Shown: piece after piece, positions 2,632 through 42,198 of the stretch
Position numbering within the stretch: position 1 is the stretch's first letter
Layout: each line of letters starts with the position of its first letter
Assembly (NCBI RefSeq): GCF_013315695.1
Contig: NZ_CP054353.1
Source: Escherichia coli
GTDB lineage: Bacteria; Pseudomonadota; Gammaproteobacteria; Enterobacterales; Enterobacteriaceae
Reading direction: 5' to 3' (one strand)
Length of the DNA: 64,000 nucleotides
Position numbers and translations under genes: made by a program
The notes under the pieces: generated by a model
Database searches by the model: none
Told to the model about the DNA's origin: nothing
Seen by the model: only the letters and a program-made list of their open reading frames with translations

Positions 2632-3882
2632 ATGTCGTTGGCAAAAGCGTCCTTGTGGACGGCGGCCAGTACACTGGTCAAGATTGGTGCCGGGTTACTG
2701 GTCGGTAAGTTGCTGGCAGTGTCATTTGGTCCGGCGGGGCTTGGGCTGGCGGCAAATTTCCGCCAGTTGATTACCGTGCTCGGCGTGCTTGCCGGGGCAG
2801 GCATCTTTAACGGCGTAACCAAATACGTTGCCCAGTACCATGATAATCCCCAACAATTGCGCCGCGTGGTCGGCACTTCATCAGCGATGGTACTTGGCTT
2901 CTCTATGCTAATGGCGCTGGTTTTTGTGCTGGCAGCTGCGCCAATCAGCCAGGGATTGTTCGGTAATACCGACTATCAGGGGCTGGTGCGTTTAGTGGCG
3001 TTGGTGCAAATGGGGATCGCCTGGGGCAACCTGTTACTGGCGTTGATGAAAGGCTTTCGCGATGCCGCAGGTAATGCGTTATCCCTGATTGTTGGCAGCT
3101 TGATTGGCGTTCTTGCGTACTACGTCAGTTACCGTTTGGGCGATTATGAAGGAGCGTTGCTGGGGCTGGCGTTGATTCCCGCGCTGGTGGTGATTCCTGC
3201 CGCCGTCATGCTAATTAAGCGTGGTGCAATCCCGTTAAGCTATCTGAAACCCAGCTGGGATAACGGCCTGGCAGGGCAGTTGAGCAAATTTACGCTCATG
3301 GCGTTGATTACGTCGGTAACCTTGCCCGTTGCTTACATCATGATGCGTAAACTGCTGGCGGCGCAGTATAGCTGGGATGAAGTGGGGATCTGGCAAGGGG
3401 TGAGCAGTATTTCCGATGCCTACCTGCAATTTATTACGGCATCGTTCAGCGTATATTTGCTGCCCACGTTGTCGCGGCTAACGGAAAAGCGCGATATCAC
3501 CCGGGAAGTGGTTAAATCGCTGAAATTCGTCTTACCGGCAGTGGCGGCGGCGAGTTTTACCGTCTGGTTGCTGCGTGATTTTGCTATCTGGCTGCTGTTG
3601 TCGAATAAATTTACCGCTATGCGCGATCTCTTTGCCTGGCAGTTAGTGGGTGATGTGTTAAAAGTGGGCGCTTATGTCTTTGGTTATCTGGTGATCGCCA
3701 AAGCGTCACTGCGGTTTTATATTCTGGCGGAAATCAGCCAGTTCACTTTATTGATGGTATTTGCCCACTGGCTAATCCCTGCGCATGGCGCACTGGGCGC
3801 AGCACAGGCCTATATGGCAACCTATATCGTCTATTTTTCTCTTTGTTGTGGCGTGTTTTTACTCTGGCGTAGGCGGGCATGA
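2632..3882 (+). CDS. wzxE: ECA lipid III flippase (polytopic membrane protein)
   Basis: 416 aa, highly hydrophobic multi-TM ORF 2 bp after wecE. Confidence 0.9.
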
Positions 3883-40265: not shown

Positions 40266-40340
40266 TCGTTCTTTATTTGGTCAGTTGTCAACCTGATACT
40301 TCGCTACAATGGATACTCGTTAATCAAAGAGTTTTCCATT

Positions 40341-41240
40341 GTGGCGCTACTTATCATCACCACGATTCTGTGGGCCTTCTCCTTTAGCTTTTATGGCGAG
40401 TACCTTGCGGGGCACGTCGATAGCTATTTTGCGGTGCTGGTGCGCGTTGGCCTGGCGGCACTCGTTTTTCTGCCGTTTCTGCGTACCCGTGGCAATAGCC
40501 TGAAAACGGTCGGCCTGTATATGCTGGTGGGCGCGATGCAGCTCGGTGTGATGTATATGCTGAGTTTCCGCGCCTATCTCTACCTGACGGTCTCCGAATT
40601 GTTGCTGTTCACCGTACTGACGCCGCTCTACATCACGCTAATTTATGACATCATGAGTAAGCGCCGTCTGCGCTGGGGCTATGCTTTTAGCGCCTTGCTG
40701 GCGGTGATTGGTGCCGGGATTATTCGCTATGATCAGGTCACCGACCATTTCTGGACTGGCTTATTGCTGGTGCAACTCTCCAATATCACTTTTGCCATCG
40801 GCATGGTGGGTTACAAACGTCTGATGGAAACTCGCCCGATGCCGCAGCATAACGCCTTTGCGTGGTTCTATCTTGGCGCGTTCCTGGTGGCAGTGATTGC
40901 ATGGTTCTTGCTAGGAAATGCGCAGAAAATGCCGCAAACCACGTTGCAATGGGGCATTCTGGTGTTTCTTGGCGTGGTGGCTTCCGGGATTGGCTACTTT
41001 ATGTGGAACTACGGCGCGACGCAGGTGGACGCCGGAACGCTGGGCATTATGAATAATATGCACGTTCCGGCAGGGCTGCTGGTAAACCTGGCTATCTGGC
41101 ACCAACAGCCGCACTGGCCAACGTTTATTACAGGCGCGCTGGTGATCCTGGCCTCACTGTGGGTGCATCGTAAGTGGGTCGCTCCGCGCTCTTCACAAAC
41201 GGCAGATGATCGCAGGCGTGATTGCGCGCTGAACGAATAA
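40341..41240 (+). CDS. yigM: DMT/EamA-family transporter (biotin transporter)
   Basis: 299 aa 10-TM; 3' end overlaps metR 3' end. Confidence 0.85.
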
Positions 41241-42081
41241 ACGCTTCTGTAATCGGCTTACGCTGCTCGCCATCGCGCACGGCGGCGTACAGTCGGCTCC
41301 ACAAGCCTTCGCCCAGGGTTTTGGTGACCACCAGACCCTGGCGTTCAAAACTCTCCACTACCCAATGCGGTAGTGCGGCAATACCCATCCGTGCGGCAAC
41401 CATCTGAATCAACAATAAGGTGTTATCGACGCTTTTCAGTGACGGGCTGACGCCTGCTGGCTGAAGAAAATGCCGCCAGACATCCAGTCGGCTACGCTGC
41501 ACCGGATAAATCAACAGCGTCTCGCTGGCGAGATCTTCCGGTGTAATTCGCGTTTTTGCCGCCAGTGGATGGTCAGGTGCTAACACCAGACGCACTTCAT
41601 AGTCGAACATCGGCGAATAATGCAGGCCACTGCGCGGCAGAATATCGGACGTCATCACCAGATCCAGCTCGCCCTGTTGCAACGCAGGCTGCGGATCAAA
41701 CGTTACGCCCGATTTAAAATCCATCTCCACCTGCGGCCAGTTCTTATGGAAACTTTCTAATGCGGGCGTCAGCCACTGAATACAGCTATGGCACTCTATG
41801 GCAATGCGCAGGCGCGTCTGCTGCGGTTCATTGCAGGCTTGCAGTGCCTGGCTAATTTGCGGCAGCACCTGATTTGCCAGTTGCAACAGGATTTCTCCCT
41901 GCGGTGTAAAGCGAAGCGGCTGGCTTTTACGCACAAATAGCCGGAAGCCAAGGCGTTGTTCCAGATCGCTAAACTGGTGAGACAGGGCGGATTGCGTTTG
42001 ATGCAACGTCGCCGCAGCGGCTGCGAGTGAGCCGCAGTTCCGCAACGCTTGTAGCGTTTTCAGGTGTTTTACTTCGATCAT
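41128..42081 (-). CDS. metR: LysR-type regulator of methionine biosynthesis
   Basis: 317 aa; divergent from metE. Confidence 0.9.
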
Positions 42082-42152
42082 GAAAGTCCTTCACTTCGGC
42101 ATGAATAATTTGCGCTTGAGGAATATACAGTAACCGCCAATTATGGATGTGT

Positions 42153-42168
42153 AAACATCTGGACGGCT
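42153..42168. promoter_or_regulatory. tandem MetJ-box-like repeats in metR-metE control region
   Basis: AAACATCT GGACGGCT, each 6/8 to AGACGTCT consensus, ~35 bp upstream of metE ATG. Confidence 0.45.
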
Positions 42169-42198
42169 AAATACTAAAAATTCCATAAGGGGCATATA

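Follow-up and report, generated by a model that had tools for sequence, protein, structure and literature searches.

The 113-nt convergent coding overlap of bioP (yigM) and metR in Escherichia coli: conservation among Enterobacterales and constraint on the two reading frames

Two convergent genes, bioP (yigM) and metR, share their 3' ends within the window, a 64,000-nt stretch of the E. coli contig NZ_CP054353.1. A first-pass annotation, made from the letters of the window, had named the genes yigM and metR, described a convergent overlap of about 113 bp between them, called it conserved in E. coli and suggested that the two transcripts might interfere with each other. The gene names are right, as indicated by Pfam and RefSeq. 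The bioP/yigM ORF matches the Pfam EamA domain in two stretches, the best-scoring of which covers aa 139-275, and the metR ORF matches HTH_1 (aa 5-63) and LysR_substrate (aa 86-288). YigM is a biotin transporter of the DMT/EamA type with 10 transmembrane (TM) segments, and MetR is a LysR-type regulator. Moreover, PDB entry 5fo5 matches the N-terminal domain of E. coli MetR, entry 4ab5 (the effector domain of N. meningitidis MetR) aligns to MetR aa 87-296, and homologues of the two proteins number in the thousands. Overall, the Pfam, PDB, homologue and RefSeq evidence indicates that both frames are true protein-coding genes on opposite strands. The features of the locus and the arrangements found in other genomes are collected in Table 1.

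Table 1. Features of the bioP-metR junction (window coordinates) and arrangement of the two genes in other genomes
Feature or genome	Position	Strand	Description
bioP (yigM) CDS	40341..41240	+	299 aa, GTG start; ORF list, Pfam EamA, RefSeq
metR CDS	41128..42081	-	317 aa, ATG start; ORF list, Pfam, PDB, RefSeq
Convergent coding overlap bioP/metR	41128..41240	both strands	113 nt; ORF list, sequence
YigM-dominated half	41128..41174	both strands	YigM aa 263-278 (last TM helix) conserved; MetR tail aa 303-317 variable
Doubly conserved stretch	41175..41192	both strands	YigM W279-S284 / MetR S298-P302; most sites invariant
MetR-dominated half	41193..41240	both strands	MetR aa 281-297 (effector domain end) conserved; YigM tail aa 285-299 variable
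YigM stop TAA	41238..41240	+	From MetR F281-I282 codons (TTT ATT)
MetR tandem stops TAA TAA	41125..41130	-	From YigM F262-I263-T264 codons; minus-strand read UAAUAAACG
Published Rho termination region	~40969	+	MG1655 4011704 mapped to the window; resolution hundreds of nt
Yersinia frederiksenii			Overlap 113 nt, geometry as in E. coli
Dickeya zeae and a Dickeya-like contig			Overlap 98 nt
Sodalis			Overlap 95 nt
Serratia marcescens			Convergent, no overlap, 36-nt spacer; YigM 286 aa, MetR 314 aa
Erwinia toletana			DUF1456 gene between yigM and metR; YigM 287 aa, MetR 312 aa
Vibrio, Microbulbifer			yigM homologue away from metR; likewise in one further contig

The extent of the overlap proved exact to the base, the ends in the ORF list and in RefSeq being identical. 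RefSeq gives the same bioP and metR ends in a 100%-identical clinical isolate, in a K-12-like laboratory strain and in MG1655, where bioP lies at 4011076-4011975 (+) and metR at 4011863-4012816 (-) with 113 nt in common. The overlap geometry of the K-12 pair (b3827/b3828) is identical to that of the present strain, and the strains differ only elsewhere. Neither frame contains an earlier in-frame stop; since the 3' end of an ORF is by definition its first in-frame stop, the objection that an earlier stop or start would remove the overlap does not apply to yigM and metR. Upstream, the GTG start of yigM lies 75 nt past the yigL stop, and a simple promoter scan of this gap (40266-40340) found no sigma-70-like site.

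The bioP-metR overlap is an already known and annotated feature, to which the site-level dissection given here adds detail but no biology of a new kind. It was previously noted in print (PMC5120140, PMC12288877). Cote et al. 2016, who identified yigM as bioP with a role in biotin transport, called its overlap with metR 'substantial' (PMC5120140). They reported that the Keio metR deletion disrupts yigM and abolishes YigM function, and that it mimics a yigM mutant, being synthetic lethal with bioA and sensitive in LB to the BioA inhibitor MAC13772 (PMC5120140).

The overlap is conserved in E. coli, as the first-pass annotation stated, and well beyond, in most Enterobacteriaceae and in Yersinia, Dickeya and Sodalis. 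Of 5426 complete E. coli genomes, 5422 contain the bioP-metR region (>=95% identity, >=80% coverage); the overlap is no accidental lengthening of an ORF in a single strain. A species scan with one genome per species gave 80 Enterobacteriaceae loci, in which YigM is 81-99% identical. The start codons of yigM and metR are exactly 1741 nt apart, without any indel, in 81 of 81 sequences (the 80 loci and the window). Most of these have a 113-nt overlap; in the others it is 116 nt (eight sequences), 98 nt (two) or 68 nt (one). YigM is 299 aa long in Dickeya, Pectobacterium, Brenneria, Yersinia, Sodalis, Chimaeribacter and Cedecea, and 286-287 aa long in Serratia, Gibbsiella, Chania and Erwinia. In the non-overlapping species, where YigM has this shorter length and MetR has 312-314 aa, the tails are unrelated.

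These observations, from Enterobacteriaceae and the more distant genera of Table 1, show that the overlap is much older than E. coli and is conserved in orthologous pairs of several Enterobacterales families. Because the register is the same and the tails are homologous in three families, a single old origin, later resolved in two lineages, would be the more parsimonious reading of the sequences. A trace of duplication was sought in Serratia by comparing the 90-nt segment between the protein cores with the flanking gene ends, and only one weak gapped local match was found.

Three of the retrieved loci are unusual. The record titled 'Chryseobacterium sp. 18061' carries a typical Enterobacteriaceae yigM-metR locus (YigM 83% and MetR 91% identical to E. 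coli) and is probably a contaminated or mislabelled assembly. Another contig (L093, 1753-3163) holds fragments of a yigL-like gene, a yigM-like gene (220 aa) and metE, without a metR called in between; it has the look of a decayed form of the locus, perhaps from a symbiont, and is uninformative for its origin. In E. coli Z135-6 (L002, 1542-3361), bioP and metR are annotated as truncated pseudogenes, with a 636-nt 'hypothetical protein' ORF in place of the junction.

We examined the constraint on the overlap site by site. The two frames are phased such that first codon positions lie opposite each other, while the second positions of either gene lie opposite the third positions of the other; every synonymous change at a third position thus alters a second position of the partner gene. 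Outside the overlap, variability at codon positions 1, 2 and 3 is 0.08, 0.03 and 0.31 in yigM and 0.06, 0.02 and 0.27 in metR. Inside it, the burden of constraint passes from one protein to the other. In the YigM-dominated half, the variable sites are third positions of YigM and second positions of MetR, apart from the frozen codons V268 (GTG), L/V/M270 (NTG) and H276 (CAT). In the MetR-dominated half, the variable sites are third positions of MetR and second positions of YigM. Residue conservation falls past YigM 284 and past MetR 302, and the Pfam limits agree with this split, EamA extending to YigM aa 275 and LysR_substrate to MetR aa 288. When families are compared, conservation of the cores stops at about W279 in YigM and at about R301/P302 in MetR, so that the cores essentially abut.

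Between the two halves, the doubly conserved stretch (about 17 nt) is the only part constrained in both frames within Enterobacteriaceae. Of the 13 sites from 41175 to 41187, 12 are either invariant or no more than 0.01 away from it, the remaining site (41182) varying at 0.06, and variability at 41188-41192 reaches up to 0.27. The frozen codons of this stretch are A299 (GCG), R301 (CGA) and P302 (CCC) in MetR, and V280 (GTC), A281 (GCT) and P282 (CCG) in YigM; Serratia, which has no overlap, uses other codons for the same MetR residues. With species treated as independent, as in all the conservation statistics given here for yigM and metR, purifying selection is clear for both frames in this stretch only, and one frame dominates elsewhere.

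The constant length of the overlap follows from the position of the stops, each of which sits in conserved residues of the partner. We infer that purifying selection on the protein encoded opposite each tail is what chiefly keeps the length at 113 nt. The eight species that have lost the first MetR stop have the 116-nt overlap, which is consistent with use of the second. When synonymous codons were drawn at random with the partner protein fixed, the E. coli tail was open with a probability of 0.68 for YigM and 0.66 for MetR; the tail lengths thus need no special explanation.

The YigM stop is more strictly kept than the proteins demand. Either Phe codon at MetR 281 leaves TAA or TGA as the YigM stop, and still F281 is TTT in 81 of 81 sequences and I282 is ATT in all 80 that have Ile there. 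Every overlap-bearing genome examined, those of Yersinia, Dickeya and Sodalis among them, keeps YigM Glu299 and its TAA unchanged, and the nonamer GAATAAACG at 41235-41243 is essentially invariant in all of them. In Serratia, without the overlap, the MetR I282 codon is ATC. As a YigM stop would also result from TTC, the invariance of the F281 and I282 codons is unexplained by the needs of either protein, and some further constraint therefore exists (a C-terminal Glu, a preference for TAA, or an RNA signal).

The MetR tail shows site-specific signs of selection: codon choice in yigM yields to it, so that the tail stays open and part of it is conserved. It is open in 79 of 81 species, compared with 48 expected from synonymous resampling of yigM. 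Across yigM codons 264-278 there are 94 stop-prone contexts, in which 32.8 stop-making codons were expected and 2 observed. For example, V268 is GTG in 78 of the 80 sequences with Val, GTT or GTC being codons that would end MetR at codon 313. The neighbouring I269 (41145-41147) is the rare codon ATA in 36 of 81 species, compared with a frequency of 2.9% elsewhere in yigM and metR, and its codon choice tracks the MetR residue or stop on the opposite strand. All eight species with Met270 use ATA at I269, the sole Ile codon that creates no MetR stop there; these species belong to several genera and have diverged from each other about as far as the full set, their identity at yigM third positions being 0.62, versus 0.58 for all pairs. 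Moreover, H276 is CAT in 80 of 81 sequences, which keeps MetR Asp305, and codon 270 is NTG whatever the residue, which keeps MetR Pro311.

Signs of selection on the YigM tail are weaker than those for the MetR tail. Synonymous variability of metR in the MetR-dominated half is 0.205, versus 0.282 outside the overlap (p=0.047), and stop-making codons in metR number 2 where 8.3 were expected. Both tails are dispensable in nature, given their natural truncations. YigM has 284-285 aa in one locus of the species scan (L031) and in two protein clusters (P0076, with 42 members, and P0077, Salmonella Gaminara, with 66 members), and MetR has 311-312 aa in two loci (L022 and L042), in Dickeya and in Sodalis.

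The overlap leaves no intergenic DNA, and we looked for the means by which the two transcripts end. A scan in and beside the overlap found no terminator-like hairpin, the sole terminator-like match (41527-41515, minus strand) lying deep within metR. A bidirectional intrinsic terminator at the junction was rejected, as neither a G+C-rich hairpin nor a U-tract occurs in or next to the overlap. Compared with shuffled sequences, the plus strand folds no better (z-score 0.11) and the minus strand is marginal (-2.06). The best minus-strand hairpin, GCCGGAACG/CGTTCCGGC at 41031-41071, was considered as a conserved RNA structure and rejected: of 81 species, only 37 and 49 preserve its two most variable pairs, and 21 have the complete set of nine. 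As it shows no covariation, this hairpin is a by-product of the protein sequence. Rfam gave no match at E <= 1 for the overlap region. The inverted repeat around the overlap (41127-41138 / 41242-41253) was likewise discarded as a maintained pairing, its left arm being variable and its right arm invariant; it arises from the Phe-Ile (TTTATT) that both genes carry at the stop of the partner. The RNA read through past each stop is C-rich relative to G, as expected for the antisense of coding sequence.

Published data point to Rho. Adams et al. 2021 (PMC7815308, supplementary file 2) reported a Rho termination region on the sense strand of yigM at MG1655 coordinate 4011704. The reads upstream and downstream of it were 98 and 21 without bicyclomycin and 300 and 326 with it (Rho score 5.07, p=1.3e-12; PMC7815308). 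The curated Term-seq tables of the same study assign no 3' ends to yigM or metR, and list the Rho region only (PMC7815308). These data indicate that Rho limits the yigM transcription that runs antisense into metR. Hairpins are present in the non-overlapping genomes, where the overlap-bearing genomes are without any: the 36-nt yigM-metR spacer of S. marcescens (L088, 3362-3397) holds a short inverted repeat, GGGCCA...TGGCCC, and Erwinia (L089, ~3368-3392) has a strong hairpin AGCGGAGCGG/CCGCTCCGCT after the yigM stop.

Since their coding sequences overlap, the bioP and metR mRNAs are necessarily complementary over at least 113 nt, and antisense interference between them, as the first-pass annotation suggested, is possible. 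In its fuller form, the pair would be an excludon, convergent transcription or 3'-end pairing followed by RNase III cleavage making bioP and metR mutually antagonistic, and biotin uptake would thereby be linked to methionine/SAM status. Biotin synthesis uses SAM, and a link between biotin and methionine is conceivable. The arrangement is kept across several families, no intrinsic terminator stands between the genes, and the pair belongs to the core MG1655 'excludome', seen in at least 50% of 58 transcriptomes (PMC12288877). However, such a listing is automatic for any overlapping coding sequences, and the literature searched held no functional test of reciprocal regulation. Rho, moreover, already cuts yigM sense read-through about 5-fold (PMC7815308). 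The overlap contains no conserved structure, its conservation tracks the codon positions of both proteins and not an RNA element, and Serratia and Erwinia retain both genes in non-overlapping form; we therefore regard mutual antagonism as unlikely. Less likely again is a conserved regulatory coupling, in which metR transcription, controlled by MetJ/SAM and MetR, would run head-on into the 3' end of bioP and, through polymerase collision or duplex RNA, tune biotin uptake to methionine/SAM supply, or the reverse. If true, this coupling would explain the survival of the overlap across Enterobacterales and the invariant GAATAAA junction.

Two other readings concern the proteins themselves. That the overlap is an artefact of annotation, one protein ending earlier or one tail being untranslated, is suggested by the poor conservation and disordered look of both tails, by the natural truncations known for each, and by a study that judged long convergent overlaps in databases to be mostly 3' extension errors (124 of 178; PMC2478687). 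This is nevertheless very improbable: neither frame has an earlier stop, the same stops are present across 81 species, the conserved cores alone still share the doubly conserved stretch, the avoidance of stop-making synonymous codons in yigM indicates translation of the MetR tail and selection on it, and YigM is inactivated in the Keio metR deletion (PMC5120140). At the other extreme, both tails might be functionally required, the full 113 nt being true dual coding, as could be argued from the frozen synonymous sites opposite the tails (V268, codon 270 and H276 in yigM; F281, I282, A285 and C290 in metR), from the rare ATA at yigM I269 and from the invariant YigM Glu299 with its TAA. Yet tail positions are mostly free, with 4-12 different residues at many sites; synonymous variability over yigM codons 263-278 is not reduced overall (0.39 versus 0.33); stop avoidance is weak for the YigM tail; and the naturally shorter proteins, like the unrelated tails of non-overlapping species, speak against it. 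Full dual coding is thus doubtful, if the least improbable of these alternatives.

The bioP-metR pair is most probably a genuine, old tail-to-tail overlap of two unrelated genes that represents maximal compaction of a convergent pair and not a dedicated device. In this compaction, convergent yigM and metR would have lost all intergenic DNA, until the end of the YigM core (~aa 279-284) met the end of the MetR core (~aa 301-302) mid-overlap, in the doubly conserved stretch. Past this point each protein carries a C-terminal tail of ~15 aa read from the antisense of its partner's core, and each stop is made by the partner, MetR Phe281-Ile282 giving the YigM TAA and YigM Ile263-Thr/Ile264 giving the MetR TAA. 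With no intergenic space for a terminator, each transcript would end inside the opposite gene, yigM being stopped by Rho according to the literature, and deletion of one gene damages the other, as the literature also indicates. Regulatory cross-talk, if any, would be a side effect of compaction. Given the persistence of the overlap in at least three families, selection for the overlap itself could also be conceived.

Compaction of this kind has known relatives. Like the class described by Rogozin et al. 2002 and by Palleja, Harrington and Bork 2008 (PMC2478687), bioP-metR is a tail-to-tail overlap of >60 bp, with both genes well characterised. Long convergent overlaps have been attributed to the loss or shift of a stop codon, and in no other orientation were long overlaps accepted as real (PMC2478687). 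The 54 overlaps judged possibly real in that study were mostly conserved in very close species only (PMC2478687), whereas bioP-metR spans several Enterobacterales families and so belongs to the well-conserved members of a class that is known but rare. ExcludonFinder lists the pair among 165 convergent excludons of MG1655 on the basis of RNA-seq coverage (PMC12288877). The E. coli mscL-arfA excludon (PMC10070815) likewise consists of convergent neighbours with overlapping transcripts, and an antisense regulatory effect is reported for it, whereas bioP-metR is listed on transcript overlap. The bioP-metR overlap is one of coding sequence with coding sequence and not of a UTR with a gene. The bidirectional terminators seen by SEnd-seq (Ju et al. 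2019, bioRxiv 10.1101/2022.10.23.513370) likewise serve convergent genes with no space for two terminators. They are described as Rho-independent (10.1101/2022.10.23.513370), whereas bioP-metR has neither hairpin nor U-tract and the published evidence points to Rho.

Beyond the other end of metR, the metR-metE intergenic region measures 117 nt in the present strain (42082-42198) and 236 nt in K-12 MG1655 (L094, 2818-3053). The K-12 region has about 119 extra nt with the palindrome CACCCCGGTCACTTACTTCAGTAAGCTCCCGGGGAT, which seems to resemble an ERIC/IRU repeat. The two strains also differ in roughly 25 nt just ahead of the metE ATG, and these differences lie in the shared regulatory region of metE and metR.

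For practical purposes, any deletion or recoding of bioP or metR has to reckon with 113 nt that serve both genes, the Keio metR mutant being a biotin-transport mutant as well (PMC5120140). Likewise, synonymous recoding of either gene within the overlap alters or truncates the partner protein. Unless reciprocal regulation of bioP and metR is demonstrated, the overlap raises no new biological question. It shows, nonetheless, how the codon usage of yigM (the rare ATA at Ile269) is bent by the needs of MetR, and bioP-metR serves as a clear textbook example of the persistence of a long convergent overlap, with abutting protein cores and stops pinned by the partner.
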